Shown piece by piece: positions 5,535 through 40,809 of a DNA stretch of 64,000 nucleotides. Numbering within the stretch: the stretch's first letter is position 1; every line of letters starts with the position of its first letter. The translations under genes were made by a program, and so were the position numbers. The notes beneath the pieces were generated by a model. The model searched no databases. It was not told the origin of the DNA and was given only the letters and a program-made list of their open reading frames with translations. Origin of the DNA: Selenomonadaceae bacterium (GTDB lineage: Bacteria > Bacillota > Negativicutes > Selenomonadales > Selenomonadaceae); NCBI GenBank assembly GCA_017535925.1, contig JAFXTD010000028.1, positions 17,229 to 81,228 on the forward strand, read 5' to 3'.

Positions 5535-6515
5535 TTAGAGAAGATGTGCGCGAAGTTCTGCACCGTCTTGAGCCGAAAGATAAGCGGGCGCGATATCGAA
5601 GACCGTCTTGCAACCGTTGCTGCCTTCTTGGTTGAGGCGATAAGCGGCACGAGCATAGGCGACGAGGACAGCCGTCGTAAATTCGGGATTGGAGTCAAGC
5701 TTGAGATTAAATTCGATAATATGATTGTGTTCCTTAGTTTGACCGGTCTTGCCCGAACGAATCACGAAGCCTCCGTGAGCAAGTCCCGCGTGTTTGGTAA
5801 GGAGTTCTTCCTCGCTGATAAAGTTGACAACCGTATCGTAATCGGCGAAATAATTCGGCATGGTCTTAATCGCGTTTTCGACTTCGGCGGCGTCGGCACC
5901 TTCCTCAAGCACAACGTAGCATTCGCGCAAATGTTTTTGACGAGTCGTAAGTTCGGGATTCTGTCCGCTGCGAACTGCCTCAAGCGCACCGGCAATCGGC
6001 ACGGTGTACTGCTTTGCATTCTTGACGCCTTTGACGCGGCGAATCGCATCGGAGTGACCTTGACTGACGCCCTTGCCCCAGAAAGTGTAATCGTTGCCGT
6101 CGGGAAGAATTGCGTTTGCATAAGCGCGAGCCAAGCTGAACAGACCGGGATCCCAACCGACGGAGATAATCGCGACGTGCTTGTTTGCTTTAGCCGCCGC
6201 GTCGACTTTTGCAAAGTGTTCGGGAATTTTTGCGTGCGTGTCGAAGCTGTCGACGACGTTAAAGAGTTTTGCGAATTCGGGCGTTTGAGTCGGAAGGTCT
6301 GTTGCACTGCCGCCGCAAAGAATCATAACGTCAATCTTGCCGACCCAATCTTTTGCCTCATCCACATGAACGACGGGAACATTCGGCGTTTGAATTTTAA
6401 CTTTGGAGGGGTCACGACGAGTGAAGACCGCCACAAGTTGAGTATCGGGATTTTCTTTTATGGCGCATTCAACGCCGCGTCCGAGATTGCCGTATCCGAG
6501 TATTCCTATTTTCAT
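5535..6515 (-). CDS. ddh: meso-diaminopimelate D-dehydrogenase
   Basis: 326 aa. MKIGILGYGNLGRGVE N-terminus and overall similarity to Corynebacterium-type Ddh. Confidence 0.85.
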   Translation of the reverse strand: MKIGILGYGNLGRGVECAIKENPDTQLVAVFTRRDPSKVKIQTPNVPVVHVDEAKDWVGKIDVMILCGGSATDLPTQTPEFAKLFNVVDSFDTHAKIPEHFAKVDAAAKANKHVAIISVGWDPGLFSLARAYANAILPDGNDYTFWGKGVSQGHSDAIRRVKGVKNAKQYTVPIAGALEAVRSGQNPELTTRQKHLRECYVVLEEGADAAEVENAIKTMPNYFADYDTVVNFISEEELLTKHAGLAHGGFVIRSGKTGQTKEHNHIIEFNLKLDSNPEFTTAVLVAYARAAYRLNQEGSNGCKTVFDIAPAYLSAQDGAELRAHLL

Positions 6516-6559
6516 GAGTTATTGCCTCCCGTTAAGAAGTATTTTCAAAGACAAGACGA

Positions 6560-6587
6560 ATTATAACATAAAAGTTAAGGCATGCAA
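6560..6587 (-). promoter_or_regulatory. sigma70-type promoter of ddh
   Basis: Minus strand TTGCAT (6582-6587), 16-nt spacer, TATAAT (6560-6565). Confidence 0.5.
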
Positions 6588-6693
6588 GCCTTATCCGTCA
6601 TGAATACAATATTATTGAACATGGGCAATGCTTGCAGGAAAAAATTTTCGCGGCGTCGAAAGGATTTTTCAAAACGGAAAGGGTGATTGAATT

Positions 6694-7692
6694 TTGAAAC
6701 TCGGTAAAATGATTGCGGCGGGCGTTTTGAGTTTGAGCTTGTTGACCGGCACGAGCTTTGCCGCCCCCGCTTGGCAACTTCCCTCGTCGGGAAAAGTTTT
6801 CTACGACGAAGCCAAACAGATTTACATTTCGAACACCATGAAAAGGCTTTTGAGCGAGAACTTCAAAGTAAACTTTTCCGCGCCAAACGGATGGACTTAC
6901 GAAAAATTTTCTGTCGGCAGCGTAAACATTGAGCGGCTTGTAAATCCCAAGCAGAAAAAATCTTCGCGGGTCGTCTTGCAACTTCACGGCGGCGGCTACG
7001 TAGGCAAACTTAGTGATTGGTATCGCGACTTCGCCGTCAAGCAGGCTGTCATGACCGAAGCGCGCGAAGTTTACATGGTTGATTATCGACTTGCGCCCGA
7101 ACATGTTTATCCCGCTGCCCTCGACGACGCCGAAAAAGCTTACGAGGAACTTTTGAGACGCGGTGTCGGTTCGGAAAATATTATCGTCTTCGGAGATTCT
7201 GCCGGCGGAAATTTGGCGTTGGCATTATCGTTGCGCTTGAAAGAAAACAGATTGCCGCAACCCGCAATGTTGATTTTGATTTCGCCGAGAACAACCTTTG
7301 AGCCCGATTCTCCCTCACGAACCGCAAATGCCGACCGCGATTTGGTTTTGGGCAAAATTAATACCCAAATGTATAATGCGGTTTTCAATCCCGTTTACGC
7401 CGGACAAACTCCTTTGAATGACCCGCACCTCTCACCGATTTATGCCGATTTAAAAAATCTTCCGCCGACGCTGATTCAAATCGGCGGCTATGAACTTTTC
7501 GTCGACGAGGGAATTGAGCTGCTCAAAAAGGCGACGGCTGACGAACTCAACGTGACGTTATCGGTTTATCAAGGCATGCCGCACGATTTTTCAATTCTCT
7601 TGCCCGAACTTGACGAGAGCGTAAAATCTTTCATTGAGATAAAAAATTTCGTGAACCTCTACATGCCGAAAGACAAAGGTCAACAAAAATAA
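6694..7692 (+). CDS. secreted alpha/beta hydrolase, Abhydrolase_3 (HSL-like esterase/lipase) family
   Basis: Signal peptide; oxyanion HGGGY; nucleophile elbow GDSAGGNLA. TTG start assumed. Confidence 0.85.
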   Translation: MKLGKMIAAGVLSLSLLTGTSFAAPAWQLPSSGKVFYDEAKQIYISNTMKRLLSENFKVNFSAPNGWTYEKFSVGSVNIERLVNPKQKKSSRVVLQLHGGGYVGKLSDWYRDFAVKQAVMTEAREVYMVDYRLAPEHVYPAALDDAEKAYEELLRRGVGSENIIVFGDSAGGNLALALSLRLKENRLPQPAMLILISPRTTFEPDSPSRTANADRDLVLGKINTQMYNAVFNPVYAGQTPLNDPHLSPIYADLKNLPPTLIQIGGYELFVDEGIELLKKATADELNVTLSVYQGMPHDFSILLPELDESVKSFIEIKNFVNLYMPKDKGQQK

Positions 7693-7703
7693 TTTCGGCT
7701 GAC

Positions 7704-7752
7704 AAAAAAAAAAGCGTCGGGAAAAAATCCTGACGCTTAAATTTTTTTTTTT
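7704..7752. terminator. bidirectional rho-independent terminator
   Basis: 9-bp stem AGCGTCGGG/CCTGACGCT, flanked by an A-run (7704-7712) and a T-run (7742-7752), between convergent genes. Confidence 0.75.
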
Positions 7753-8293
7753 ACTTTTCAAGCCAATCGCTCATGCCCAAATGCACGACGTATTCTTTGG
7801 CGCACTCGTAATAATGCATCGCCGAAGTCCTCAACGCAACAATTTCGTCCTCGCGAAGAGCGCGCATAATCTTTGCGGGATTTCCGAAGACCAATGAATT
7901 ATTCGGAATTTTTTTGTACTGCGTGATAACCGTGCCCGCGCCGATAATGCAGTTGTTTCCGATTTCCGAATAGCCGAGAATTATCGAGCCCATGCCAATC
8001 AGACAATCGTCGCCGATTTTGCGGCAGTGGATAATCGAGTTGTGCCCTATCGTCACGTAGTTGCCGATTTCCGTCGGCGTGTCGCCCATGACGTGCACCG
8101 TGCAGTTGTCTTGAATGTTTGTGTAGTTGCCGATTCGCACGGGTTGAAAATCTCCGCGAACCGTCACGCCGAACCAAATACTTGAGCCCGCACCGATTGA
8201 CACTTCGCCGACAATCGACGAGCCCGGCGCAACGAAAACATCTTTGGCTATCTTGGGTTGTTTGCCTTTGTAAGGAAGAATAATCGGTTCCAT
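7751..8293 (-). CDS. gamma-class carbonic anhydrase-like / hexapeptide-repeat protein (YrdA/PaaY type)
   Basis: Left-handed beta-helix hexapeptide repeats; His-containing motifs (TVHVMG, IGHNSIIH). Confidence 0.85.
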   Translation of the reverse strand: MEPIILPYKGKQPKIAKDVFVAPGSSIVGEVSIGAGSSIWFGVTVRGDFQPVRIGNYTNIQDNCTVHVMGDTPTEIGNYVTIGHNSIIHCRKIGDDCLIGMGSIILGYSEIGNNCIIGAGTVITQYKKIPNNSLVFGNPAKIMRALREDEIVALRTSAMHYYECAKEYVVHLGMSDWLEK

Positions 8294-11039: not shown

Positions 11040-12266
11040 TTATGCTTGAGCACTCTCGACAAACCGCCAATGATAGCCGCCGGCTGTTCGATTAATTTCC
11101 TTGCAAGCTCGACGAATATGCGTATCTCTAATTTTGAGATAACGTGCCGCTTCATTTATCGACTCGTAAATTTTGTCGGTCTCAATGCAAATCACAGGTT
11201 TTTTCGTTGAATTCTTTTCGGAAAGTTTGGCTCTGTGTTCGTCACTCAAATGCCGCGCAGTCGTCGAAGAATTTTCTTCCGCTGTTTTGTCCGTATACTT
11301 CCAACGAAGACCGCCCGCCGTTTGAATAATTTTTTTGCAGGCTTTGGTTATGGAACTGCGGAGAATTTTATGAACACGTTCCGCTTCCGAAAGACTTTCG
11401 AAAATTTCACCCGTATCAATGCATGTAACGCGGCGAGATTTTGTCGTCTTGCCGTGAATTTTTTTTTCTGTATCGATTTTAACTTCCGTTGCTTCGTCGG
11501 GCTTATCGACAAACCGCCAATGATAGCCCGCCGCTGTCCGTTCGGGATTTTTGCAAGCATTTGAAATCCCCGTTCGATTTTTAAGATTATGAGCACGAGC
11601 TGCCGCTGTCAATGATTCAAATATTTCTTTTGTCTCAACGCAAATGACGGCTTGTTTATCTTTAGTTTCGGTGTCGTCTGCAAATTTCCAGTGAAAGCCG
11701 CCGGTAGTCTTGCGTTTATTTTGGCATACGCGATGAATACTTTGAAGACTGAGATTATTATGACGCGCCGCCTCCGTTACCGAATCATAAATTATTCCCG
11801 TTTCTATACATATCACTTTACGTTTATTCGGAATCACAGCAGATAAATGAGCTTTTTCTTCTTCCGTGAGCGGTCTGCCGGGTTTGCCTGTTAAACTTTG
11901 CGCGATAAGGTCTTTTGACTCGTTGCTGTGTTTCATACCGAAACGAGTCATTTTTGTGACGCTTTCGGGAGTTCGTTCCCAACCGCCTTCGCCGCCGTCA
12001 GTGTTATTGTAGCCGTTCGGCCAGCGGGTGCCGCGTGATTTAATGAAATGTCTTTCCCAACAGTTGAGCTCCTCTTGGCTTTCACAAACTTTCAAAATCG
12101 CCGTAGAAAAATTTTCTGCACCGTGTTTGCGAATCGCTCTGCCGATGTTCGACGTTTTGCAACGTTTGTGCTCTTTGAAGCGTTCCTCGACAGTTTGCGT
12201 CGTCTGCCCGACATATTCCTTGTCGTTTGTTCCGTCGATTAGCAGATAAATTACTCCGAATGCCAT
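11040..12266 (-). CDS. free-standing GIY-YIG homing-endonuclease-like protein with NUMOD3-like and four tandem HTH-like DNA-binding modules
   Basis: N-terminal GVIYLL...YVGQT...R..EH...E...N GIY-YIG core. NUMOD3-like KHSNESKDLIAQSLTGK / LSDEHRAKLSEK. Four ~50-aa repeats of the form V.CIETG.I[YF][ED]S..EAAR......I..ACK...[RK]TAGG[YF]HW[RK][FY]. Confidence 0.85.
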   Translation of the reverse strand: MAFGVIYLLIDGTNDKEYVGQTTQTVEERFKEHKRCKTSNIGRAIRKHGAENFSTAILKVCESQEELNCWERHFIKSRGTRWPNGYNNTDGGEGGWERTPESVTKMTRFGMKHSNESKDLIAQSLTGKPGRPLTEEEKAHLSAVIPNKRKVICIETGIIYDSVTEAARHNNLSLQSIHRVCQNKRKTTGGFHWKFADDTETKDKQAVICVETKEIFESLTAAARAHNLKNRTGISNACKNPERTAAGYHWRFVDKPDEATEVKIDTEKKIHGKTTKSRRVTCIDTGEIFESLSEAERVHKILRSSITKACKKIIQTAGGLRWKYTDKTAEENSSTTARHLSDEHRAKLSEKNSTKKPVICIETDKIYESINEAARYLKIRDTHIRRACKEINRTAGGYHWRFVESAQA

Positions 12267-25730: not shown

Positions 25731-25758
25731 TTGCGCGCTCTGAAAAATCTGTTATAAT
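25731..25758 (+). promoter_or_regulatory. putative extended -10 sigma70-type promoter upstream of the flagellin gene
   Basis: TTGCGC, 16 nt, TGTTATAAT (TGnTATAAT at 25750-25758). Confidence 0.35.
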
Positions 25759-25816
25759 GCTAAAAAATTTTTCGATACGTTAAAAGGATTTTGTGACTTT
25801 CAAAGGATGATGACTT

Positions 25817-27802
25817 ATGGCAATGGCAGTGAAAAACAATTTGGCGGCGACGCAAATTCTCAATCAGCTCAATCAAAACAATTCGGAGTTGAGTCGGAGG
25901 TTGGCAAGAGTTTCGACCGGCATGAAAATCGTCAGTGCACAAGACGACGCTTCGCAATACGCCATTTCCGAGAGGATGCGTGTAAAAATTCGCGCCCTCG
26001 ACCAAGATTTGCAGAACGTTCAAAACGGTTCGTCGATGCTTAAAAATGCTTCGGGCGGCGTGGAAAGAATTGTCGACATCTTGCGCGAAATGAAGGCGAA
26101 GGCAATCAACGCCGCAAACGATTCGAACACCGACGAAGACCGCCAAACCATTCAAAAAGAAATTACGCAGCTTATGAAAAGCATTAACGACGTGGCACTG
26201 GGCACCGAATACAACGGCAAGCGATTAATCGACGGCACCTACGACCCGCGAACGGAATACGCCGATATTCCCGGCACGGCTCTGCAGGTTGCAAAAGCTT
26301 TAATGTCTTCTTTGGACAAAACGACCTTATCGGGCGAGGCGGCTCTCAACGAGGCGATAAATTACGCTTCGGGCGGCAAGTTCGAAACCAAAGACGCTCT
26401 TATCGGTCAGTTCATGAACGACTTAAACAATTCCTCGTCCAGCACAGACTTTTTGAAAGATTATTGTGACATTATTCTCGGCAACGCGGACACAGGCGCA
26501 ATAACCGGCAAAGACGCGGGCGGCGACACGATTAAAACTGCCGAATCGATTGTTCCCGAAAAAATTGCCGTCTCAAGTTGGGGGCTGCCGACAAGCGACA
26601 CGACGATTAACGGCTTGACGATTCATTGGCCGACGGCAGGCGCGAACGGAAGTTTCACTGCCGAAGAGGAACACATTTTGAAAGGTTTGAATTCGGATTG
26701 GATTGAGCAATGCATTAATCTGGTCACAGAGTCTTTCGGCTTGAGCTTCACCGAAGACGGCACCTCTGTCAATGAAATCAGCGTTACATTTGAAGATGAC
26801 AGCAGCAATAATCGTTTGGCGGCTGTGGGACATTCTTATTCACTTTCAACCGGCAAAGCCACGAGCTTAGAGTTAATCGTCAACATGAACTACTACAGTT
26901 CCATTGACATGACGAGCGAGGACGGCAAAAGTTCAAACCCCAACTCAATGTATCTTGACCGAACGCTTGCACACGAATTCACGCACGCGCTCATGGCGGC
27001 GAACATTGATAACTTCAATGCGCTTCCAAAGTACATAAAAGAAGGCACGGCGGAACTCGTTCACGGTATCGATGATGTACGCAACCTTACAGGCTTGTTG
27101 GATGATAAAACCACCCTTGAAAAAGTTTTTGCGGAAGAAACATTGACTAATGAAAAAGATGAAGCTTACTCCGCCGGCTACATGCTCCTGCGCTACTTGG
27201 CAAAGCAAGGGCAAGACTCAATTAACGCAACCAACTCTCAAGCAACTGTCCTTAGCAGAAAATATAATCCGCTTGTCATTCAAGACGGGACTCAAGCCGG
27301 GCAACACAACAACTTTTATATCAAGGACATGCAGACGAATTCTTTGACGGCGGGAAAAATTTTTAAATTCGGAACGGAAAGTGCCTCGAACTTGATTAAC
27401 GCAAACGACCTCGCCCGCTACAATGCTTTGGACAACGACCCCGACAAACAAGCAGAGTGGCTTGAAACTCTTCGGGCGGCGGCAAATATGACCGTCGACG
27501 ATATTTCCGTCACGACCGTCAAGAATGCAAACATTGCGATTCGTGTGCTCGACGGCGCACTTGAATACGCCCTCGACAACGCCACGACAATCGGTTCATA
27601 TCTCACGCGGTTGGAATACGACGCCGACAACGTGACGATTTCAAGAGACAACGTTCAAGCCTCCGAATCCGTGATTCGCGACGCCGATATGGCTAAGGAA
27701 ATGACGGCTTACACCAAAGCAAATGTTTTGGCTCAAGCCGCGCAGGCAATGCTCGCTCAAGCCAATCAAAATCCCGCGAACATTTTAAGTTTGTTGCAAT
27801 AG
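25817..27802 (+). CDS. flagellin with an inserted HExxH zinc-metallopeptidase domain (flagellinolysin-like)
   Basis: Canonical flagellin N (LAATQILNQL...RLARVSTGMKI...QDDAS) and C (RLEYDADNVT...DADMAKEMTAYTKANVLAQAAQAMLAQANQNPANILSLLQ) domains. Central ~370 aa contain LAHEFTHAL (HEFTH = 26972-26986) plus EGTAE about 20 aa downstream. Confidence 0.9.
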   Translation: MAMAVKNNLAATQILNQLNQNNSELSRRLARVSTGMKIVSAQDDASQYAISERMRVKIRALDQDLQNVQNGSSMLKNASGGVERIVDILREMKAKAINAANDSNTDEDRQTIQKEITQLMKSINDVALGTEYNGKRLIDGTYDPRTEYADIPGTALQVAKALMSSLDKTTLSGEAALNEAINYASGGKFETKDALIGQFMNDLNNSSSSTDFLKDYCDIILGNADTGAITGKDAGGDTIKTAESIVPEKIAVSSWGLPTSDTTINGLTIHWPTAGANGSFTAEEEHILKGLNSDWIEQCINLVTESFGLSFTEDGTSVNEISVTFEDDSSNNRLAAVGHSYSLSTGKATSLELIVNMNYYSSIDMTSEDGKSSNPNSMYLDRTLAHEFTHALMAANIDNFNALPKYIKEGTAELVHGIDDVRNLTGLLDDKTTLEKVFAEETLTNEKDEAYSAGYMLLRYLAKQGQDSINATNSQATVLSRKYNPLVIQDGTQAGQHNNFYIKDMQTNSLTAGKIFKFGTESASNLINANDLARYNALDNDPDKQAEWLETLRAAANMTVDDISVTTVKNANIAIRVLDGALEYALDNATTIGSYLTRLEYDADNVTISRDNVQASESVIRDADMAKEMTAYTKANVLAQAAQAMLAQANQNPANILSLLQ

Positions 27803-27814
27803 ATTTTTTCTTCT

Positions 27815-27838
27815 TCGCCTTCGGGCGATTTTTTTTTT
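27815..27838 (+). terminator. rho-independent terminator of the flagellin gene
   Basis: TCGCC-TTCG-GGCGA followed by T10. Confidence 0.8.
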
Positions 27839-27840
27839 GC

Positions 27841-27928
27841 AATTCCCAATTTAGTGGTTAGTGATTAGTGGTTAGTGGTTAGAAAAACAATTCCCAATTC
27901 CCAATTCCCAATTCCTAATTCCTAATTC
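27841..27928. repeat. two adjacent non-complementary heptamer arrays
   Basis: TAGTGGT TAGTGAT TAGTGGT TAGTGGT, then AATTCCC x3 and AATTCCT x2. Confidence 0.8.
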
Positions 27929-28025: not shown

Positions 28026-31000
28026 TTATTCGAACTGCTGGGTCGCATGGTTGACTTTGGCAGTGGTGCCGTCGTCGAGAACGATGTTGACTTCAGCAGT
28101 GCTGTTGACTGTGAGCGAGCTGCCGTCGGTGAGTTTGATCTCAACGCCGGTTGCGGTGATGTTCGTGCCGTCGAAGTCAATCTGGTCAAGCGTCACGCCG
28201 AGCTGGATAACGTCGCCGTCATTCGCGCTCATGATTGTGTCGTTGCCGTTGTATCCTTCGAAGTAGAACTCGTTGTGACCGGTGCCGCCGTACATTACGT
28301 CGTTGACGATGCCGGAGCCGCCCCACATGCTTGCGTTGCCTGCGCCGCCGTAGATGGTGTTGGCAATTTCGTTACCTGCAGCCAAGACTTCCGCATTGGA
28401 GCCGCGTGCGTCGACAACAGTGAACTTGCTGTTGCTGAAGTCTACGCCGTTGCCGTAATCCGGAGCGTCGAGCCAAATCTCGGTCGAAGCAATGTCGCCG
28501 ACTTTGACGGTCGCGCCGTTAGCGTCGTCGGTTGCGCAGTAGAAGTCGACATAGGAGTTGTTGACGGTGACTTCCGTCGCCGCAATCTGGGCAACAGTCT
28601 CGAACTCGGTGCCGCGGTCAACCAAGAATTCATTGCCTGCCGCATTTTCGATAGTGACTTTTTCGGTTGCGCCGCCTTCGCCGCGGTTACCCTGGATAGC
28701 AAGCGTTACGCTGCCGTCAGAGTTGGCTTTGATGTCGGTTACGCCGTTTTCGCCCATATCGATCGTGAGTGCGTCGAAGGTTGCGGTATTGCCGCCGCCG
28801 TTCTCGATGAACTCGAAGCCGCTGATGGTGTTCTGCGCGCCGTTGTTGATACCAAGTACGAAGAATTCGGTGGAGCCCATCTTGTCTTCGCTGGAGGAGC
28901 CGACCAAGTTGTTCTTGCCGCCGCCGCCGTAGAGTGAGCCTTCGCCCGTGCCGGCAACGAGAGTTTCATCTGCAGAGCCGCCCTTGAACAAGGTGTTGCC
29001 GCTGCCGCCGATGAGGCTGTTCATGCCGTCGAACGTTGCGTTGTCGTCGCCGACTTTGCTTTGAGCCCAATCGCCGTCCATGTCAACGGTAACTTCGCCG
29101 GTGTATGCGCTGAAGTCAACCGCGCCGTTCGGTGCTTTGTAGAAGTTGGGAGCATCTTCGCCGACGGTGATTGTGCCGCCTTCGACAGCGATAGCCGCTT
29201 TGATCGTCTCGTTGTTGTTGACAAAGAGTTGTTCGACGAAGCCTGCTTCGGTTGTCACAGCTGCGGTTGCGCTGAACTTGTCGTTCTTGTTGCTGACAAC
29301 GAGGTTTGTGCCGTCGAAGGAAACGTCGGTGTCTGCTGCCGCGAGATCAACATTGAGGATATCGCCGTTGAAGCCGCTGACCAAACCGGTGATGGTGTCT
29401 TTGCCTTCGCCGAGGATAATCGTTGCTGCGCCGCGGTCTTCAGTTTCGGCATCGAGGATAATCTGGTTCGAACCCGCGCCTGCGTCGATAACATCGTTTT
29501 CGCCGCCGAAGAGGGTGTCGTTGCCGGTGCCGCTCTTGAGGCTGGAGCCGCCGAGTTTGTCGCTCTCTCTGTTGCCGATAAGGATGAGGTCTTCCGCAAT
29601 GTCGCTTGCGTCGAGAACGCCGCCTTCTTTATCGGTGAAGCCGACCAACTGACCGTAGTCGTCGCCGTAGGTGTCTTTGCCGTCTTTGTAGCCGAACAAG
29701 CGAATCATGTTCTGGTGGTTGCTGTTCAAGTTGTTGACGGTGATTCTGGTCTTGCGGTCTGTACCTTCTTTGCGGGATTCGTTCGCGTCGAATTCGTCGC
29801 GGTCGATAGCAGTAATTCCGCCGTCTTCGAAGAGCAACAACTCGTCTTGAATTGCATCGACGATGTTGTCAGCATACGGAATTTCAGGATCGTGGAGGAC
29901 AACGCCGGAAATGCCGGTTTCGTCGTAGTTGTTGAGGACGATGTTGGCATTGGCTGCCGCGTAGGTGTGAATCTTGTCAACGCTGTTGGTATTGGCAGTG
30001 CCGCCCATGTCAATGACGGTCTTCATGTTGGCTTGATGGACAACTTTGTCATTTTCCATGCTGCCGCCAACCCAGATCGTGTCATGACCGGAGCCGACAG
30101 TGATGTTGACTTGACCGTATTCGTCGTCGCCCTGCATGATAACCGCGTCGCCGTGGTTGCCGAGGACAATGTTCTTTTCGCCTTCAGCGGTATCAGTGAC
30201 CCAAGCAACGCTCTTGCCGGCGGTGGTGCTGAGTTTGCCGGTCGAGGTGCCGCCGGCATCAAAGATGACAAGACCCGAAGCTGCGTCGGTGGAACGATCC
30301 AAATTGTCGTTGTTGGATTCACGGAAGATTTGCTCTGTCGGGAACGGATCGAGACCAAGCCAGTTGTCTGCGTACATGATTTTGCCGGCTGTGACTTGCG
30401 AATAGAACAACGGATAATCATGATCGGTCACGAAAGAGCTGAGGGTATCTTCTGCCTTGGTGTTGTAGCCGATAATTGCTTCGTTGGTGAGGTTGGCAGT
30501 CGCAATGTCTTCTGCGGAATAGGTTGTGCCGTTGACAGTGATGGGACCTTCGGAGACTTGGAGAAGTGCATCTTCGTCAAGTCCGGTGACTACGCCGCCT
30601 GCAGTGATTGTGACGCCGTCTTTATCATTAACAACTCTGTAAATTTTGCCGTTGACGGTGTAGATGTCAGGGATTCCGTCGGTGCTGTCGCTTGCAAAGA
30701 CAAACGTCGTGCCTTCGTCGGTGCTGCTGACAACGTCGCCGTCGACAAGACCGCTGACTTCGGCAAGACCGGTGCTGGTGTCGCCCGTGACGGTAATGTC
30801 ATTGGCGGCAGTGTAAGTGAGCGTATCGCCGTTAATATCGATTTCGTAAGTGCCGTTGCGGAGAACGATTGAATCTTCAACACCGTCAAGACCCGTAATT
30901 ACACCGTTGAGGTCAAAGGTAAAGGTGTCATCTGTATCCGCTGTAAGAGTATTTCTTAAAGGAACGTTTGCGGGAACGATTGCGCCGTCGCTCATATTGC

Positions 31001-32792
31001 TGATTGTGAATTGAGGATCGGTCGGGTCGGTAACGTCGGAAAGAGTGACCGTGAAGCCTTCGGTATCCGCAATAGCAGGAACAGCAATCAAGTTGGCAGC
31101 GGTTTCAGTGAGGTAGTAGAGGTCGAGGTCTTCGGCACCGTCGGGCAACGTGACAGAGTCATCTTTCGATTCGAATACGAAGCCTTTAATGATTCCGTTT
31201 GCGGCGGTTATGAAGTGACCGTTGCCGGTGTAGCCGTAGGTGAATCCGTTGACGTTGTCGGTGACGTAGCCGGTCTTGTCGCCGGTGGTGAGCTGATCGA
31301 TTCCGGAATATGCGGCATAGACAGTTTCGCCTGCATCAACTACGAGTTGTTGATCGCCTGCCGCGCCGCCGATAAGCGTGAAGTCGCCGTCGGAAACAGT
31401 GATGTATTCCAAGGTGCCCTTCTTGCTGATAACAGGCAAGCCTTCTTCTTCGCTGTCAGCATCCGGGCCGGTGACGACCAATTTGTCGCTCGTGCTGGTG
31501 AGGTTGTAGAGACCGTCGACGCTTTCGATAACGCCGTCTTCGTCGAAGGTGATATTGATTTCTTTACCGCCTGCGAGAGCAGATTTGATTGTGAAGTCTA
31601 ACGTCGTATCGCCGATTGTAACTTCTGAGGTATTTGCAATGGTGAGCGTGTAGTTGTTTGCATTCTTGGTAACGGTGTAGCCGCTGCCGTCAACTGTAAC
31701 GAGCTTGGTGAGATCTTCGTCATAGACGTTGATATCTTGGTTATTGGCAACGGTGATCGAGTCGCCGGTAACATCCAAGACAAAGCCTTCGACCGAGCCG
31801 TTGCTATTGAGCGTGAAGTAAGCTTCGCTGTTTGCGCCGAGAACGTACTCATACGTCTTCTTGGCAATCATGATGGAGCCGCCTGCTACGTCGTTTGAAT
31901 CGGGATCGGTGGGCGGAACGAGTTTTTCGGCGTTGGCTGCCGAAGTAACGTTGATAACGTCGGTGCCGTCTTGAGCGAGGTCGCTGAGGTCAAGTTCAAT
32001 GCCGTCTGTGCCGTAAGTGAATACGACTGTGCCTGCGGCAACGTTCTTAATCTTGACTTCGTTATCGTCGACTGTAAAGTTGTAGTCGTTCTCTACGGCA
32101 ACGGAGCCGCCTTCGGTTCCTGCAGTGACTATGCTGTCAAAGCTTGTTTCGTCGCCTGTCCAAACGAGATCGTCTTCACTTTCGGGCGGATCAAAGCCGG
32201 TAACGGTAACGGTGATGTCGCCTTTGGTGTAGGCGTCGGCATTGTTGGCATCGTATTCACCCATAGTGAATTGACCTTCGCCTGCGTCAATCTTGCCGCC
32301 TGTGAGGTTGCCGTTGTTCAACGTGAACGAGAGACCTGCGCTGGCATTGAGTTCAAAGCCTTTGCCGTTTGCTTTTTCGAGAACGAGACCGGCGACTCTG
32401 GCAAGGGTCGAAATGCCGTCGAGGTTGTTCAAAGCAAGTTCAGTAACTTCATAGCCGCTGGCATTTGTCGTTGTTGTTGCGCCTGTTTGAGAGAAGAACA
32501 CGCCTGCAGTGGAAGTGCTGTTGGTGAAAGGATTGGTACCATTTTTCCAAGCATAGTATTTGCCGTCGGAAGCCAAATATCTATCGGCGTTTTGTTCGGT
32601 GATGGCATCCGCCGTGTTGGCAACCTTATTGAGTTCTGCATCGCCGTATTCGACGTCTTCATCCCAACTGTCTGCGCCTTTGCTGGTGTCGCCGTCGACG
32701 TCCAAGTTAAAAGTGCTTACACTATCCGGCTCGCCTGCCGGTACAAATTCCTCAAGCTCGAAATCGTCGAGGACGTTGAAAAAATCATTCAT
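28026..32792 (-). CDS. giant acidic RTX-like repeat exoprotein (1588 aa)
   Basis: No signal peptide. D/T/G/N/V-rich with repeated ~100-aa modules. The C-terminal third has Gly/Asp nonapeptide-like repeats (GTGNDTLFGGENDVIDAGAGSNQI; YGGAGNASMWGGSGIVNDVMYGGTGHNEFYF). Confidence 0.85.
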   Translation of the reverse strand: MNDFFNVLDDFELEEFVPAGEPDSVSTFNLDVDGDTSKGADSWDEDVEYGDAELNKVANTADAITEQNADRYLASDGKYYAWKNGTNPFTNSTSTAGVFFSQTGATTTTNASGYEVTELALNNLDGISTLARVAGLVLEKANGKGFELNASAGLSFTLNNGNLTGGKIDAGEGQFTMGEYDANNADAYTKGDITVTVTGFDPPESEDDLVWTGDETSFDSIVTAGTEGGSVAVENDYNFTVDDNEVKIKNVAAGTVVFTYGTDGIELDLSDLAQDGTDVINVTSAANAEKLVPPTDPDSNDVAGGSIMIAKKTYEYVLGANSEAYFTLNSNGSVEGFVLDVTGDSITVANNQDINVYDEDLTKLVTVDGSGYTVTKNANNYTLTIANTSEVTIGDTTLDFTIKSALAGGKEINITFDEDGVIESVDGLYNLTSTSDKLVVTGPDADSEEEGLPVISKKGTLEYITVSDGDFTLIGGAAGDQQLVVDAGETVYAAYSGIDQLTTGDKTGYVTDNVNGFTYGYTGNGHFITAANGIIKGFVFESKDDSVTLPDGAEDLDLYYLTETAANLIAVPAIADTEGFTVTLSDVTDPTDPQFTISNMSDGAIVPANVPLRNTLTADTDDTFTFDLNGVITGLDGVEDSIVLRNGTYEIDINGDTLTYTAANDITVTGDTSTGLAEVSGLVDGDVVSSTDEGTTFVFASDSTDGIPDIYTVNGKIYRVVNDKDGVTITAGGVVTGLDEDALLQVSEGPITVNGTTYSAEDIATANLTNEAIIGYNTKAEDTLSSFVTDHDYPLFYSQVTAGKIMYADNWLGLDPFPTEQIFRESNNDNLDRSTDAASGLVIFDAGGTSTGKLSTTAGKSVAWVTDTAEGEKNIVLGNHGDAVIMQGDDEYGQVNITVGSGHDTIWVGGSMENDKVVHQANMKTVIDMGGTANTNSVDKIHTYAAANANIVLNNYDETGISGVVLHDPEIPYADNIVDAIQDELLLFEDGGITAIDRDEFDANESRKEGTDRKTRITVNNLNSNHQNMIRLFGYKDGKDTYGDDYGQLVGFTDKEGGVLDASDIAEDLILIGNRESDKLGGSSLKSGTGNDTLFGGENDVIDAGAGSNQIILDAETEDRGAATIILGEGKDTITGLVSGFNGDILNVDLAAADTDVSFDGTNLVVSNKNDKFSATAAVTTEAGFVEQLFVNNNETIKAAIAVEGGTITVGEDAPNFYKAPNGAVDFSAYTGEVTVDMDGDWAQSKVGDDNATFDGMNSLIGGSGNTLFKGGSADETLVAGTGEGSLYGGGGKNNLVGSSSEDKMGSTEFFVLGINNGAQNTISGFEFIENGGGNTATFDALTIDMGENGVTDIKANSDGSVTLAIQGNRGEGGATEKVTIENAAGNEFLVDRGTEFETVAQIAATEVTVNNSYVDFYCATDDANGATVKVGDIASTEIWLDAPDYGNGVDFSNSKFTVVDARGSNAEVLAAGNEIANTIYGGAGNASMWGGSGIVNDVMYGGTGHNEFYFEGYNGNDTIMSANDGDVIQLGVTLDQIDFDGTNITATGVEIKLTDGSSLTVNSTAEVNIVLDDGTTAKVNHATQQFE

Positions 32793-35199: not shown

Positions 35200-35299
35200 C
35201 TAATCGCCTCGTTAAAATTTTTTTTATCATAGCAGAAAAATTTTTCGTTGCATAGCGGCTTGACTTCCTTTTTCGACGGTGTTTATATTTCGCGGGGTG

Positions 35300-38173
35300 A
35301 TGTTCATGCAGTTTCAATTTAAAAAGCAACTCTTCCAAGAGGAGGCGGCTGCTTCCGTCTGTGATTTGTTCATCGGGCAAGCATGTCAATCTCAATCGGG
35401 CGCGTTGAGTCTTATGCGGCTCGACGAATTTAATATCGGTTCCAATGCCGAAATTTCTCTTTCCGACGAAAAAATTTTGGAAAATCTGCGCGGCATTCAA
35501 GAGCGAAATAAATTGCCGCTGTCGAAAAATCTTGAGGGGAAAAATTTTTCTGTGGAAATGGAAACGGGCGTCGGCAAAACTTACACTTATATCAAGACAA
35601 TGTACGAGCTCAATCGCCGCTACGGTTGGAGCAAATTTATCGTCGTCGTGCCGAGTATCGCCGTTCGCGAGGGCGTCAAAAAAACTTTTGATATGACAGC
35701 CGAACATTTCAATTCCGTTTACGGAGAAAAAATCCGTCACTTCATTTACAATTCCAAAAATCTTTCCGTCATTAAAAGTTTCGTCAGCGATTCAAAAATT
35801 TGGGCGATGATTATCAACGTTCAAGCCTTCAGAGCGCGTTCGGATGATGCACGCCGCATGACGCAGGAGCTTGACGAATTCCAAAGCCAAATTCCAATCA
35901 AGGTTATCGCAAAAATAAATCCGATTATCATAATCGACGAGCCGCAATCGGTCGAAAGTGAATTGGCTTGCAAAAAAATTAAAGACTTCAATCCGCTGAT
36001 GATTTTGCGATATTCGGCGACGCTTAAAAATCCTTACAACCTCGTCATGCGCCTCGACGCACTCGACGCTTATCAACGCCGCCTCGTAAAAAAAATTTCC
36101 GTCAAAGGAATTGAAACTCGCAACGAAAATTTTTCCGGCTACATTTTTTTTGAAAGGCTCAATCTTTCAAGAGGCAACCCGACCGCCACGATGACTTTCA
36201 AGCGAAAAACGCCCGGCGGTGTCAAAAAAATTTCCCGCAAAGTTTCCGTCGGCGACGATTTGTTTATTTTATCGAACGGGCTTGAAGGCTATCGAAATTT
36301 CGTCGTGACAGAGATTGACGGCGTGAAAAGGTCTGTCGAATTTCTCAACGGCTTGGAAATTTTTATCGGTCAAGCGGTCGGTGACGTGAACGAAGAAGAA
36401 TTGAGACGCATTCAAATTCGCGAAACCATTCAATCTCATCTTGAGCACGAGGATCGGCTTTTCGGGCGCGGCATAAAAGTTTTGTCATTGTTTTTCATCG
36501 ACGAGGTCGCCAAGTATCGTCGCTACGAAGGAAACTTGCCGCTTGCCGGGATTTACGCCAAAATTTTTGAGGAAGAATACGCCGCCGCCGTTCAAAATTT
36601 CCATGCAGACAACGACTATAAAATTTATCTTGAATCAATCGCCGCGCAGGACACTCACGCCGGATATTTTTCCGTCGACAAAAAAAATCACGCCGTCGAT
36701 TCCAAAGAGGACGATGTTGACGCTTACGATTTGATTATGCGAGACAAAGAGCGGCTTTTGGATTTGAAGACGCCCGTCCGATTTATTTTTTCGCATTCGG
36801 CTTTGCGCGAGGGCTGGGACAATCCGAACGTCTTTCAAATTTGCACACTCAAGCACAGCTCAAGCGATATTCGTCGGAGGCAAGAGGTCGGGCGCGGCAT
36901 GAGGCTTTGTGTAAATCTTCACGGCGAACGCATGGACGAAGACAAACTCGGCGCGGATTTTCATGACGTGAATGTTTTGACCGTCATTGCCAACGAGAGC
37001 TATCAAACTTTCGCGGCGGGCTTGGAAAAAGAAATATCGGAGGCTGCCCGGCGCACGCCGGCTATCGACGAAAAATTTTTTGTCGGAAAAAAATTTTCGG
37101 GCATCAACGCTGACGAAAAATTTTCCCGAAAAATTTATAACGCCTTGATTCGCTGTAACTACCTTGACGACGAAGGAAACTTAACGGAAAAATTTTTCAA
37201 CGACAATTCTCAAGGCGCGATTGATTTGGGCGAGGAACTCAAGAATCACTGCGCGGCGATTGTAAAATTTCTTGACATTGATTTTAATATCGAAAACGCA
37301 CGCGACATTGACGTTGAAGCAAAGGCGGATGTCAAAAAACTTCACGACGAAAATTTTTTGAAACTTTGGGAGCAAGTCAATCGAAAAAGTTTCTACAGCG
37401 TCGAATTCGATTCGGAAGAGCTGATAAATCTTGCGGCGGACGCGCTCAACAAAAAGTTGCCCTCGTCGGAAAATTATTTCCTCGTTGAAAGCGGCACTCT
37501 CAATGACAAAGGCACCTTCGACAAGGAGCACAGTCGCAGGGAAAATTTTCAAGCGGCTGAAACTTTTTCGGAAACGGATTTAATCGCCGCTCTTGCCGAC
37601 GAAACTTCTTTGACGCGCAGAGACGTTGCCGAAATTTTGAAACGCCTCGAAATGCTCAAGCTTAACCATGAAAAATTTATTTTGAACTCGACAAAAATTA
37701 TTCGCGAAACCAAAGCCGACCGCCTCGCCGCGAACGTCACTTACACCGCCCTCGACGAACGCTTCAACATTAAAATTTTTAACGCGCCGCTGAAAGGTCG
37801 TTTCAACGTCAACGCCGCAGAGACCTCCAAAAATATTTACGATTACCTGATTTTCGATTCGACGATTGAAAAAAATTTCGCCGCCGAACTGGAGGCAGCC
37901 GACAGCGTTTCCGTCTATGTGAAGTTGCCGAAAAGTTTTTATATCCCGACGCCGTTCGGCAAGTACACTCCCGATTGGGCGATAGTACTTCGCGAAGGCT
38001 CTGTCAAAAATATTTATTTCGTCGTCGAAACGAAAGGCTCCACCGACGAAGGACAACTGCGCGGCGTCGAGGAAGGCAAAATTTTTTGCGCAGGGAAATT
38101 TTTTGACACAATCGGCGAAGGCAAGGTAAAATACCGCTTGGCAAAAACTTTTCAAGATATTTTGGAGGAGTGA
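35300..38173 (+). CDS. res: type III restriction enzyme, Res subunit
   Basis: MQFQFKKQLFQ N-terminus; Walker A METGVGKTYTY; IIIDEPQS box; helicase C motifs; C-terminal PD-(D/E)xK-like TPDW...VVETKG. The start could be 35300 or 35306. Confidence 0.92.
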   Translation: MFMQFQFKKQLFQEEAAASVCDLFIGQACQSQSGALSLMRLDEFNIGSNAEISLSDEKILENLRGIQERNKLPLSKNLEGKNFSVEMETGVGKTYTYIKTMYELNRRYGWSKFIVVVPSIAVREGVKKTFDMTAEHFNSVYGEKIRHFIYNSKNLSVIKSFVSDSKIWAMIINVQAFRARSDDARRMTQELDEFQSQIPIKVIAKINPIIIIDEPQSVESELACKKIKDFNPLMILRYSATLKNPYNLVMRLDALDAYQRRLVKKISVKGIETRNENFSGYIFFERLNLSRGNPTATMTFKRKTPGGVKKISRKVSVGDDLFILSNGLEGYRNFVVTEIDGVKRSVEFLNGLEIFIGQAVGDVNEEELRRIQIRETIQSHLEHEDRLFGRGIKVLSLFFIDEVAKYRRYEGNLPLAGIYAKIFEEEYAAAVQNFHADNDYKIYLESIAAQDTHAGYFSVDKKNHAVDSKEDDVDAYDLIMRDKERLLDLKTPVRFIFSHSALREGWDNPNVFQICTLKHSSSDIRRRQEVGRGMRLCVNLHGERMDEDKLGADFHDVNVLTVIANESYQTFAAGLEKEISEAARRTPAIDEKFFVGKKFSGINADEKFSRKIYNALIRCNYLDDEGNLTEKFFNDNSQGAIDLGEELKNHCAAIVKFLDIDFNIENARDIDVEAKADVKKLHDENFLKLWEQVNRKSFYSVEFDSEELINLAADALNKKLPSSENYFLVESGTLNDKGTFDKEHSRRENFQAAETFSETDLIAALADETSLTRRDVAEILKRLEMLKLNHEKFILNSTKIIRETKADRLAANVTYTALDERFNIKIFNAPLKGRFNVNAAETSKNIYDYLIFDSTIEKNFAAELEAADSVSVYVKLPKSFYIPTPFGKYTPDWAIVLREGSVKNIYFVVETKGSTDEGQLRGVEEGKIFCAGKFFDTIGEGKVKYRLAKTFQDILEE

Positions 38174-38179
38174 ACCCAA

Positions 38180-38947
38180 ATGAATTACAAGCTCTGGGAT
38201 TTTTTCAAAGAGTTGCAGACGAATTACGACTTGGTAGACTTGACTCACCCGCTCGACAACGACAGCCCTTATTGGTCGGGAATTCCCGAAGGCTCCGTTG
38301 AACTTTGCAAGACTTGTTTCGATTGGGGCAACCCGATGCTCGAATGCCTGATTCAAACTTTTAAATTCCCGGGACAATTCGGCACGCATATCGACTTCCC
38401 CGCTCACTTCATCAAGAATGCTCCGCGCAGTGAGGCTTACGGCGTGAGCAACATGATTTATCCTCTTTGCATCATTGACATTTCGGCGAAGGTTGCAGAG
38501 GATATTCACTACGCTGTGACGGCTGACGACATCAAGGCTTACGAAAAAATTTACGGCGCAATTCCCGACGGCGCGTTCGTTGCACTTTACAGCAATTGGG
38601 CTCGGCATTGGCCTGACATGAATAAAATTTCGGGTATCGCCGAAGACGGCAGCGAAAATTTCCCCGGCTGGTCTCTCGACGCGCTCAAATATATTTATGA
38701 AATTCGGAACGCCGCCGCAAACGGTCACGAGACACTTGATACCGATGCTTCCGCAGAGGCGTCTAAGGCAGGCGATTTGGCTTGCGAACGTTATATCCTC
38801 TCGAAAGGCAAACTCCAAGTCGAAGTCATGACGAATCTTGACAAGGTTGCTCCCGCCGGCGCAATTGTCTTTGTCGCTTGGCCGAACATCACAGGCGCAA
38901 CAGGTTTGCCCGCCAGAGTTTTGGCTATCACTCCAAAAAAATCATGA
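38180..38947 (+). CDS. putative-cyclase / kynurenine-formamidase-fold protein (PF04199-like) embedded in the R-M operon
   Basis: GQFGTHIDFPAHF metal-binding motif of the cyclase family. ATG lies 6 nt after the res stop (RBS GGAGGAG), and the stop overlaps the mod start (ATGA). Confidence 0.75.
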   Translation: MNYKLWDFFKELQTNYDLVDLTHPLDNDSPYWSGIPEGSVELCKTCFDWGNPMLECLIQTFKFPGQFGTHIDFPAHFIKNAPRSEAYGVSNMIYPLCIIDISAKVAEDIHYAVTADDIKAYEKIYGAIPDGAFVALYSNWARHWPDMNKISGIAEDGSENFPGWSLDALKYIYEIRNAAANGHETLDTDASAEASKAGDLACERYILSKGKLQVEVMTNLDKVAPAGAIVFVAWPNITGATGLPARVLAITPKKS

Positions 38948-40809
38948 ATAACATTGACAAGCTCGAAAAAATTTTTCCCGAATGCATTACCGAAGCCGAA
39001 GACTCCGAAGGCAATTTGATTCGCGCCGTCGATTTTGTTCGACTTAAACAAATTCTTTCGGATGAACTCCTCGAAGGGCGTGAGGCTTACGAATTTAATT
39101 TCGTCGGGAAGAAACGCGCCGCTCTTGAGGCTCACAAAAAAATTCGGAAGACGCTCCGCCCGCTTATCAATCAAAGCCGCAACTTCGACACGACTCAAAA
39201 TCTTTACATCGAAGGCGACAACCTCCAAGCTTTGAAAATTTTGGCGGAAAGTTATCTCGGCAAAGTCAAAATGATTTACATAGACCCGCCGTATAACGTA
39301 GGGGCGGACGCCATTTATCGCGACGACTTCACACAGGACTCCGATACTTTCGATGAGGAGGCTGCAGTCCGCGACGACGAGGGCAATCGCCTTTTCACCA
39401 ACAAGGAAAGCTGCGGGCGTTTCCATTCCGATTGGTGCGCCATGATTTATTCGAGGCTTTTAATCGCCAAACATTTTCTCTCTGACGACGGCGTCATTTT
39501 TATTTCTATCGACGACCACGAACAGGCGAACCTCAAAAAAATTTGTGACGAGGTCTTCGGCGAAAAAAATTTTGTCGCTTGTATTGCCGTGATAAATAAT
39601 TTCAAAGGACGGAGCGACGATAAATTTATCGCGACGGCTCATGAAAACTTGTTGATTTACCGTAAAGAAAACTTTAAGACAAACGGCGTGCCGATTCCCG
39701 ACGAATATCTTAAAGAATACACTTTGGAAGATGAACACGGCAAATATCGTTTGCAAGGCTTGAGGAAACGCGGCGCAAATTCAAAACGCGAAGACCGCCC
39801 AAACATGTTTTATCCTTTTTTTTATGATGAAGAGAGCGGCAAACTTTCCATTGACGAATTGCCCGCCTCGATAAAAATTTTGCCGTACCTTTCGGATGGC
39901 ACAGACGGTTGCTGGCGTTGGGGCAAAGACACTGCTCGCGAAAAAATTTCGGAGCTGACAGTTCAAAAAGTTAAAAGGCGCGGAGAATATGATGTATTTC
40001 AAAAAGATTATCTTCCAAGTGACGGTGTACGACGCGTTAAACCGAAATCTTTTTGGAGCGGCTCGGAATTTTCTGCAGAAGCAGGAACGTTGACGCTTAA
40101 GGCAATCATGGGCAAAGGAATTTTTTCGACGCCAAAATCATTGGGGCTTGTCAAATACATGTTGCAACAGGCGACGGACAAAGATTCAATCGTTATGGAT
40201 TTTTTCAGCGGCTCTGCGACGACGGCTCATGCAGTCATGGAACTCAACGCGGCGGACGGCGGGCAACGAAAATTTATCATGATACAAATTGCAGAGGCGA
40301 CGCCCAAAAATTCGGAGGCACACCGCGCCGGCTACGAGACCATTTGCGAAATCGGCAAGGAGCGAATACGTCGAGCGGGCGACAAATTAAAAGCCGCGCA
40401 TCCGAATTTGGACACGGGCTTCAGAGTTTTCAAAGTTGCCGATTCAAATTTCAAGCCGTTGCCGAAAGAGTGGACACCCCGGACAATTATGGACTTCGCG
40501 GAAAATATCAAAGCCGACCGCAACGCTTACGATTTATTTTTCGAGGCGTTGCTTGATACGGGCATGACACTTGATAAAAAATTCGCGGAAGAAGAAATCG
40601 ACGGCGTGAAAGTTTTGAGCTTCGACGGCGGAAAAATTTTGGCAAGCTTCGAAAAAAATATTTCGGCTTCGACGTTCAGGAAGTTGGCAAATCGCGGAGC
40701 GGAAAAAATTTTTTTCAGAGATGCCTCGTTTGCAAGTTCGTCTGACAAGATAAACGCTTTGGATTATTTTAAATACTTCGCGCCGGATACAAAAGTTAAA
40801 GTTTTATGA
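38944..40809 (+). CDS. mod: type III DNA methyltransferase, Mod subunit (beta-class N6/N4)
   Basis: Start at MNNIDKLEKIF. LYIEGDNLQALKIL; catalytic IYIDPPYN; later AdoMet motif FFSGSATTAHA. Confidence 0.92.
   Translation: MNNIDKLEKIFPECITEAEDSEGNLIRAVDFVRLKQILSDELLEGREAYEFNFVGKKRAALEAHKKIRKTLRPLINQSRNFDTTQNLYIEGDNLQALKILAESYLGKVKMIYIDPPYNVGADAIYRDDFTQDSDTFDEEAAVRDDEGNRLFTNKESCGRFHSDWCAMIYSRLLIAKHFLSDDGVIFISIDDHEQANLKKICDEVFGEKNFVACIAVINNFKGRSDDKFIATAHENLLIYRKENFKTNGVPIPDEYLKEYTLEDEHGKYRLQGLRKRGANSKREDRPNMFYPFFYDEESGKLSIDELPASIKILPYLSDGTDGCWRWGKDTAREKISELTVQKVKRRGEYDVFQKDYLPSDGVRRVKPKSFWSGSEFSAEAGTLTLKAIMGKGIFSTPKSLGLVKYMLQQATDKDSIVMDFFSGSATTAHAVMELNAADGGQRKFIMIQIAEATPKNSEAHRAGYETICEIGKERIRRAGDKLKAAHPNLDTGFRVFKVADSNFKPLPKEWTPRTIMDFAENIKADRNAYDLFFEALLDTGMTLDKKFAEEEIDGVKVLSFDGGKILASFEKNISASTFRKLANRGAEKIFFRDASFASSSDKINALDYFKYFAPDTKVKVL

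Follow-up and report, generated by a model that had tools for sequence, protein, structure and literature searches.

Does a flagellin with an HExxH metallopeptidase motif in its central region act as an enzyme on the filament surface, and how does it relate to the proteolytic flagellins already described? This question is raised by a gene at 25817-27802 (+ strand) of a 64,000-nucleotide stretch of DNA, hereafter the window, from a Selenomonadaceae bacterium (GenBank assembly GCA_017535925.1, contig JAFXTD010000028.1, positions 17,229 to 81,228). The gene starts with ATG and encodes 661 amino acids (aa) followed by a stop codon. An initial annotation of the window, made from the sequence alone, had proposed an enzymatic flagellin resembling flagellinolysin, whose founding description is that of FliA(H) from Clostridium haemolyticum (Eckhard et al., 2017; PMC5595980). 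In agreement with this, we find that the gene probably encodes a flagellinolysin, in which the D0/D1 domains would build the filament core and a ~310-aa zinc-metallopeptidase cassette would be displayed on the surface. By its sequence, the gene, which lies on a rumen-type metagenome contig, adds a member to a known family, from a lineage already listed in 2017: Supplementary Table 2 of PMC5595980 names Selenomonas bovis, S. ruminantium, Selenomonas sp. ND2010, Anaerovibrio sp. RM50 and A. lipolyticus. Taking all comparisons together, the balance tips toward a further reading, namely that Selenomonadaceae flagellinolysins are natural circular permutants of the Clostridium-type enzyme and carry a portable ~310-aa cassette in common with a much larger and so far unannotated population of RTX-type exoproteins.

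Both ends of the encoded protein are those of a flagellin. The Pfam profile Flagellin_N matched aa 5-141 (115 bits, profile positions 1-137 of 139) and Flagellin_C matched aa 577-660 (68 bits, positions 3-86 of 86), and this near-full-length coverage indicates that both flagellin termini are complete, as the initial annotation had stated. The N-terminal D0/D1 region (aa 1-140; 25817-26236, +) forms helices at aa 2-33, 45-100 and 106-129 in the full-length AlphaFold2 (AF2) model, and aa 3-146 match flagellins of the Protein Data Bank (PDB) at E ~1e-41; the C-terminal D1/D0 region (aa 563-661; 27503-27799, +) is delimited by Flagellin_C and a predicted helix at aa 568-660. Between these regions, two linkers bracket the cassette, and both are poorly conserved and of low predicted confidence (predicted local distance difference test, pLDDT, below 50). 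Linker 1 (aa 141-154; 26237-26278, +; low confidence at aa 143-152), a predicted flexible tether into the cassette, is 7-57% identical to relatives of less than 70% overall identity. Linker 2 (aa 465-484; 27209-27268, +; low confidence at aa 468-482), the corresponding tether back to the flagellin, has merely 10-25% identity to relatives that are 60-69% identical overall.

The cassette proper spans aa 155-464 (26279-27208), about 310 aa, and has sharp edges when trimmed against non-flagellin homologues; the initial annotation had correctly recognized a central insert but placed it slightly too wide, at 26265-27380. The cassette consists of two parts. The first, Nsub (aa 155-272; 26279-26632, +), was delimited by alignments A2 and A3, by AF2 and by the NCBIfam model NF033876, and comprises four helices, an invariant NxDTGAITGxDAGG...K..E..VPE loop and the sequence GLTIHWP. 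The second, the peptidase core (aa 280-464; 26654-27208, +), was delimited by NF033876, a weak Peptidase_M9 match and the alignment to FliA(H). Downstream of linker 2 lies the ND1 beta-hairpin (aa 485-512; 27269-27352, +; LVIQDGTQAGQ...DMQTNSLTAG; AF2 strands at aa 486-489 and 497-500), whose motif is common to Bacillus subtilis Hag and to FliA(H) ('IQLQVGANEGQ'). This shared motif places the cassette before the hairpin, as in FliA(H), and we therefore dropped the notion that insertion at this point is unusual. A second, clade-specific insert (aa 513-562; 27353-27502, +; AF2 helices at aa 529-537 and 542-556) forms a helical hairpin (aa 529-556) at the canonical hypervariable position; it was restricted to the closest relatives (P0001 to P0015), and the Anaerovibrio/Selenomonas type lacks it. 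Among the homologues, a group of ~1,000-aa flagellins (P0016-P0024, L039, L044 and L052) combines an Nsub-core cassette with extra domains, ~120 aa before it and ~330 aa after it, and one protein of 1,114 aa (P0031) looks like two fused or read-through flagellin genes.

The family assignment rests first on the best NCBIfam match, NF033876 'flagellinolysin' (201.5 bits, E=2.8e-59), and on the arrangement of the predicted active site. LAHEFTHAL occupies aa 384-392 (26966-26992) and KEGTAE aa 408-413 (27038-27055), so that E409 and E413 follow H390 by 19 and 23 residues, respectively; the initial annotation had described this pair of motifs with a spacing of about 20 residues and had taken it as the gluzincin arrangement of flagellinolysin, a reading that the profile match and the following comparison bear out. 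Against the FliA(H) sequence (561 aa, taken from Supplementary Fig. 7 of PMC5595980), the core aligned to aa ~144-327 with ~33% identity over ~200 aa, and the Smith-Waterman score was 213 compared to a shuffle mean of 34 (z=31.8). The founding study defined the family by HExxH (H233/E234/H237 of FliA(H)), with E262 as third ligand, A265 as 'basement' residue and D206 at a Ca site, and FliA(H) is inactive as an E234A mutant and inhibited by EDTA (PMC5595980). In our alignment, H386, E387 and H390 of the HEFTH sequence (26972-26986, +) correspond to H233, E234 and H237, with the two His predicted as zinc ligands and E387 as general base. Likewise, the EGTAE sequence (27041-27055, +) aligns E409, the predicted third zinc ligand, with E262, A412, the predicted basement, with A265, and E413 with E266.

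These residues are conserved almost without exception. E387 and A412 occur in every one of 150 flagellin copies that share this domain order, and H386, H390, E409 and E413 individually in 149 of them; among 165 free-standing cassette copies, the catalytic residues were kept in 158-163. In a 23-sequence alignment, H386, E387, H390, E409, G410, A412, E413, H416, G417, D419 and D420 were invariant, as were H386, E387 and H390 in alignments A1 and A3. Such conservation, together with the match to NF033876, indicates more than a chance motif. In all, 1,707 homologues were found, the named ones from Selenomonadaceae. The closest are rumen metagenome proteins with up to 92% identity, and the encoded flagellin belongs to a separate clade of rumen metagenome-assembled genomes (MAGs) whose members share 60-92% identity; homologues from Anaerovibrio lipolyticus, Selenomonas ruminantium and Schwartzia have 44-50% full-length identity. 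Among the matches listed, which covered at most 80 loci, carriers of the protease cassette seem to be limited to Selenomonadaceae from rumen and gut (Anaerovibrio, Schwartzia, Quinella, S. ruminantium and MAGs), and the listed loci of oral Selenomonas (L067-L085; S. noxia, S. infelix, S. felix, S. massiliensis and others) contained only cassette-less flagellins of 440-480 aa.

Several results weigh against the reading as an active flagellinolysin. The NF033876 score lies 3.5 bits under the equivalog cut-off of 205 bits, a shortfall that fits a match split by the reversed domain order described below and sequence divergence; relatives with the same architecture (P0070, P0152 and P0016) score 215-234 bits, over the cut-off. 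Close relatives that pass the cut-off come from S. ruminantium and Anaerovibrio. The Peptidase_M9 profile (PF01752) matched aa 383-471 weakly, with 22.4 bits compared to a gathering threshold (GA) of 26. In the hidden Markov model (HMM) alignment, the position of the proposed Ca2+-site Asp206 of FliA(H) is taken by N356 (26882-26884, +), and Asn occupies it in 149 of 150 Selenomonadaceae flagellin copies, whereas sequences of the FliA(H) type carry Asp. Coordination of Ca2+ is still possible with Asn. Furthermore, in at least one Nsub-core flagellin, that of S. ruminantium ATCC 12561, Ala replaces the residue equivalent to E409, and thus not every Nsub-core copy need be catalytic; this copy may be inactive, or E413 may substitute, and the adjoining flagellin copy of the opposite domain order retains all catalytic residues. 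The Ala-bearing open reading frame (ORF; 5863-7761 of NZ_AUJE01000035.1, locus L020) reads 'KYITAGAAELVHG' at this site. Finally, Zn/Ca-dependent endopeptidase activity and presence in the filament have been demonstrated only for FliA(H) and for HgrFlaMP of Hylemonella gracilis (PMC5595980, PMC7643111).

Structural comparison adds to these reservations. Modelled alone, the cassette was predicted by AF2 as a single confident unit (pLDDT 87.8, predicted TM-score 0.87; Nsub at pLDDT ~80-97). An N-terminal lobe of four helices leads through a loop region to a helix and a sheet of three strands, and the active-site helix, the Glu helix and the C-terminal helices come after these. In the full-length model, low-confidence linkers at aa 143-152 and 468-482 bracket this unit. 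A Foldseek search of the PDB returned no significant match for the cassette and no M9 collagenase. The best hits, catalytic domains of M1 aminopeptidases, which are gluzincins, were weak (E=0.7-9.5, TM-score ~0.29), and a search of PDB sequences with the cassette profile gave zero matches at E<=10. These searches thus gave no structural confirmation of an M9 or gluzincin fold, and the gluzincin fold is assigned from the sequence motifs, whose pattern fits, and the homology to FliA(H). The literature likewise contains no solved flagellinolysin structure. Of the profile and structure check that the initial annotation had suggested for residues ~150-520, the flagellinolysin profile and a confident compact fold were obtained, while a significant PDB match was not.

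These observations bear on whether the cassette could be a non-catalytic surface domain, an adhesin or pseudo-protease serving in binding or antigenic variation on a filament without enzymatic activity. Such a domain would account for the missing match to any solved protease, for the Asn in place of the proposed Ca-site Asp and for the loss of the E409 equivalent in one related Nsub-core flagellin. It would also suit the divergence of the core, which, like an antigenic surface, is the most divergent structured region relative to the 92% identical protein P0001: the core (26654-27208) is 81% identical between the two, compared to 94-100% for D0/D1, the hairpin and Nsub, and this low value hints that diversifying selection or recombination has been concentrated in the core. 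We nevertheless consider a non-catalytic cassette unlikely, given that ligands, base and basement are retained at the frequencies reported above among proteins that are only 40-50% identical, and that two homologues are proven proteases.

The flagellinolysin assignment in turn brings out how the insert is organized. When the protein was scanned in pieces, aa 159-274 matched NF033876 positions 222-321 (E=2e-15) and aa 282-470 matched positions 40-223 (150 bits). Nsub thus corresponds to the later and the core to the earlier part of the model, and the order of the insert is reversed relative to NF033876; the encoded flagellin does not have the domain order of the type member, in which the core precedes the C-terminal lobe. 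FliA(H) reads ND1, core, 'LKAVMKEI...DVGSILGSDHGHGD...IIWPDD' and beta-hairpin, whereas the encoded flagellin reads ND1, 'LQVAKALM...DTGAITGKDAGGD...IHWPT', core and beta-hairpin. Consistent with this, global alignment of the two inserts scored -48 in native order and +235 after the insert studied here had been permuted, and Nsub compared with the FliA(H) tail gave z=3.8, while cross-controls gave z=-0.5 and 1.4. The insert is therefore, as is well supported at the level of sequence, a circular permutant of the order found in FliA(H) and the NCBIfam model.

We then classed the domain orders of 338 collected homologous proteins with four sub-profiles. The order FlaN-Nsub-core-FlaC was found in 137 of them, and FlaN-core-Nsub-FlaC in 8 complete and 5 partial or fused proteins; a further 160 of the 338 were non-flagellin proteins with Nsub-core order. 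Two cassettes were present in 4 of the 338, and at least one of these is directly tandem (P0191, whose core at 166-369 is followed by an Nsub at 392-505), as would be expected of an intermediate if permutation proceeded by duplication and deletion. Both orders occur within Selenomonadaceae. The core-Nsub flagellins of this family are close relatives of the Nsub-core ones; they have core scores of 190-238 bits, compared to 74 for FliA(H), and their best-match identity to Nsub-core proteins is ~50%, similar to identities within either order. In S. ruminantium ATCC 12561, a tandem array of four flagellin genes comprises one Nsub-core, one core-Nsub and two cassette-less genes, and a free-standing core-Nsub protein was found as well (L074). 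A word-indexed search with the FliA(H) insert gave 10 proteins. For Proteobacteria, Butyrivibrio and other members, we infer the order solely from the NCBIfam model and published HExxH positions. As regards earlier reports, the text of PMC5595980 has zero occurrences of 'permut', a library search gave zero occurrences of 'circular permutation' in PMC7643111, and no paper in the literature searched joins both topics.

The cassette is not restricted to flagellins. In a library of 1.84 billion proteins, its profile matched 1,376 representative clusters, 706 of them at E<=1e-30, and in most of the best 150 matches the cassette sits at residues ~4-310 of proteins 400-2,000 aa in length. In example free-standing cassette proteins, RTX repeats scored above the Pfam threshold and a signal peptide was lacking. 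The carriers for which names were recovered all came from Selenomonadaceae or S. ruminantium ('calcium-binding protein [Selenomonadaceae]' and 'Hemolysin-type calcium-binding repeat-containing protein [S. ruminantium]'), and the cassette in these RTX-type carriers was not recognized by Pfam. By profile matching, the Nsub-core cassette thus heads hundreds of non-flagellin RTX-type proteins in Selenomonadaceae, and this population is a candidate ancestral donor of the flagellin protease. The occurrence of one cassette in a flagellin and in RTX-type exoproteins is consistent with a module that lends itself to unfolded export and to folding outside the cell.

From these data we propose how the protein would work. 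The subunit would be exported unfolded via the flagellar type III channel and polymerize under the cap, after which the cassette would fold outside the cell, held by its two flexible linkers. H386, H390 and E409 would bind zinc and E387 would act as general base; Ca2+ probably stabilizes the cassette fold, as in the two characterized enzymes, of which HgrFlaMP has been reported to depend on both Zn and Ca for activity (PMC7643111). With every subunit incorporated, the filament would thereby gain one endopeptidase site for extracellular peptides and proteins of the rumen.

Whether the protein would enter the filament as a regular subunit is also a matter of its genomic surroundings. Among 62 ORFs of the window scanned against Pfam, no flagellar gene was found, so that the initial annotation's statements that no fliD, fliS, flaG or other flagellar gene is adjacent and that the flagellin gene stands alone hold for the entire 64 kb. 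Flagellinolysin genes of A. lipolyticus and S. ruminantium TAM6421 also lie outside flagellar clusters. The initial annotation had further suggested a search for additional canonical flagellins, and a second flagellin gene was indeed found, in the genome of a relative: the nearest MAG has a 94% identical orthologue (L012) and a cassette-less flagellin gene (L073), laid out as in the relative L075 with a GT41 glycosyltransferase, a small ORF and a 527-aa cassette-less flagellin. Relatives at 60-67% identity also have cassette-less flagellins of ~460-540 aa beside a GT41 glycosyltransferase. The second flagellin in the nearest MAG implies that the flagellinolysin is probably not the sole flagellin, and a role as accessory filament subunit is plausible from this gene content.

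The same surroundings could be read differently, in that the protein, although exported by the flagellar system, might act as a released soluble protease or as a minor or cap-proximal component instead of a regular subunit. Its gene lies apart from all flagellar genes, cassette-less flagellins of the kind present in relatives could form the filament, and a ~310-aa cassette plus a second insert is bulky. Yet the D0/D1 regions are complete and 55-75% identical to paralogous and orthologous flagellins, and in C. haemolyticum only one filament protein is more abundant than FliA(H), whose bulky insert of ~300 aa occupies the same scaffold site (PMC5595980). Even larger outer domains polymerize, as in the 793-aa flagellin solved as a filament (PDB 9au6). 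A released or minor protein is in our estimate slightly less probable still than a non-catalytic cassette, and the reading as a flagellinolysin built into the filament is retained.

Conservation of the locus itself speaks to whether the gene has a current function at all. The arrangement Ada-Fmt-RuvB, flagellin and a convergent giant gene is kept in at least 5 related MAG species, with identities across these loci of 89-91% for RuvB, 60-67% for the flagellin and 42-49% for the giant protein. Upstream of the gene lies a promoter-like extended -10 element (TGTTATAAT, 25750-25758, +), read from the sequence and of putative function, whose TGnTAnnAT pattern recurs in 6 of the 7 upstream regions aligned from orthologues. 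Next comes a conserved 5' leader (25783-25816, +) with two AAAGGA motifs (25783-25788 and 25802-25807), the second of which is the Shine-Dalgarno sequence, 9 nucleotides (nt) before the ATG. This leader, ~45 nt in length, is near-invariant in 7 orthologous loci, compared to 60-67% identity of the proteins encoded there; the orthologous leader loci include L003, L007, L008, L009, L011 and L038. We presume a resemblance to the two-site, CsrA-bound and CsrA/FliW-controlled hag leader of Bacillus subtilis. A sigma-28 promoter (TAAA-N15-GCCGATAA) was considered and rejected: only a partial 'TCGATAC' is present upstream, and it is window-specific and wrongly spaced. Downstream of the gene, an intrinsic-terminator-like hairpin (TCGCCTTCGGGCGA) is followed by a run of ten T (27815-27838, +).

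A silent or decaying, horizontally acquired copy without current function is hard to reconcile with these features, and we regard it as very improbable. The position of the gene outside flagellar loci, near a restriction-modification system and a fast-evolving giant gene, would suit such a copy. Against it stand the intact ORF, the synteny in at least 5 MAG species, the conserved promoter, leader and ribosome-binding site, a GC content typical of the window and the strong conservation of functional residues.

The convergent neighbour encodes an acidic RTX-like exoprotein of 1,588 aa (28026-32792, -) with a weak Pfam HemolysinCabind match, no signal peptide and GGxGxD repeats near its C-terminus. 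Full-length orthologues of this giant protein, 42-49% identical, adjoin the flagellin gene in 5 related MAG species, and its C-terminal ~530 aa share 25-38% identity with the tails of free-standing cassette proteins. Within the window, type I secretion genes were not found beside it. Between the convergent terminators lie two tandem arrays of 7-nt units, TTAGTGG x4.6 (27851-27882) and CAATTCC x5.9 (27888-27928), which could vary by slippage. Elsewhere in the window, a type III restriction-modification system with a Res helicase-endonuclease and an N6/N4 methylase occupies 35279-38173, 38180-38947 and 38878-40809 (all +), with a putative cyclase ORF between the Res and methylase genes, and a free-standing GIY-YIG/NUMOD homing-endonuclease-like gene of 408 aa (11040-12266, -) lies among housekeeping genes.

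Comparison with known systems places the encoded protein within the family and sets out its distinguishing features. It has the D0/D1 scaffold in common with FliA(H), with the insert lying in both between the last ND1 helix ('..LL.G') and the 'hQhGxxxGQ' beta-hairpin. It differs from FliA(H) in lobe order (Nsub then core, compared to core then an Nsub-like lobe), in Asn356 as opposed to D206, in the extra 50-aa helical hairpin, and in an isolated gene as opposed to one in a flagellar cluster. HgrFlaMP is likewise encoded away from flagellar genes, among unrelated housekeeping genes, but it is proteobacterial and has its HExxH at aa 249-253 of 565, compared to aa 386-390 here; a distance of ~90-100 residues after ND1 implies a core-first order there, judged by position and not by alignment. 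Family members already listed in 2017, such as the flagellins of S. ruminantium TAM6421 and A. lipolyticus, have the same Nsub-core order, cassette boundaries and lineage at 44-50% full-length identity, whereas the clade studied here has the aa 513-562 insert and a neighbourhood of RuvB and the giant RTX-like gene.

Resemblance to other proteases is more distant. The M9 clostridial collagenases (ColG/ColH) also have HExxH followed by a Glu ~19-28 residues on, and the weak PF01752 match, which lies over the active-site helices, points to them; the sub-GA score, the lack of an M9 structure among the Foldseek matches and the lack of an activator domain set the encoded protein apart, and the collagenase double-Gly motif is absent from the flagellinolysin family (PMC5595980). 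The serralysins combine an N-terminal protease with C-terminal RTX repeats, and they are metzincins, with HExxHxxGxxH plus a Met-turn. The free-standing cassette proteins resemble them in having an N-terminal protease module and no signal peptide, followed by RTX nonapeptide repeats. They are unlike them in that the cassette has the gluzincin pattern, and for the flagellin copy the proposed route of export is the flagellar system and not type I secretion.

The concept of the enzymatic flagellin is established, and the gene mainly extends a known family to an uncultured clade of rumen Selenomonadaceae. Beyond the initial annotation, our analysis adds that the family was already known in this lineage, that the order of the insert is reversed and that the module is common to RTX exoproteins. 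The permuted topology, the large pool of free-standing RTX-linked copies and the conserved RTX-like neighbour are well supported by comparisons of sequence and, within the literature searched, appear to be unreported. Two permuted topologies at the same flagellin site imply that the active site should face the medium in different orientations; they represent a natural experiment in domain insertion and display, and the cultured strain ATCC 12561 carries both. The free-standing RTX-linked copies offer a concrete candidate source of the flagellin protease, and the protease module would pass through two distinct routes of export, each requiring its substrates to be unfolded. Altogether, as Selenomonadaceae are abundant in the rumen, filament- and RTX-borne copies of the cassette could add to ruminal protein breakdown.

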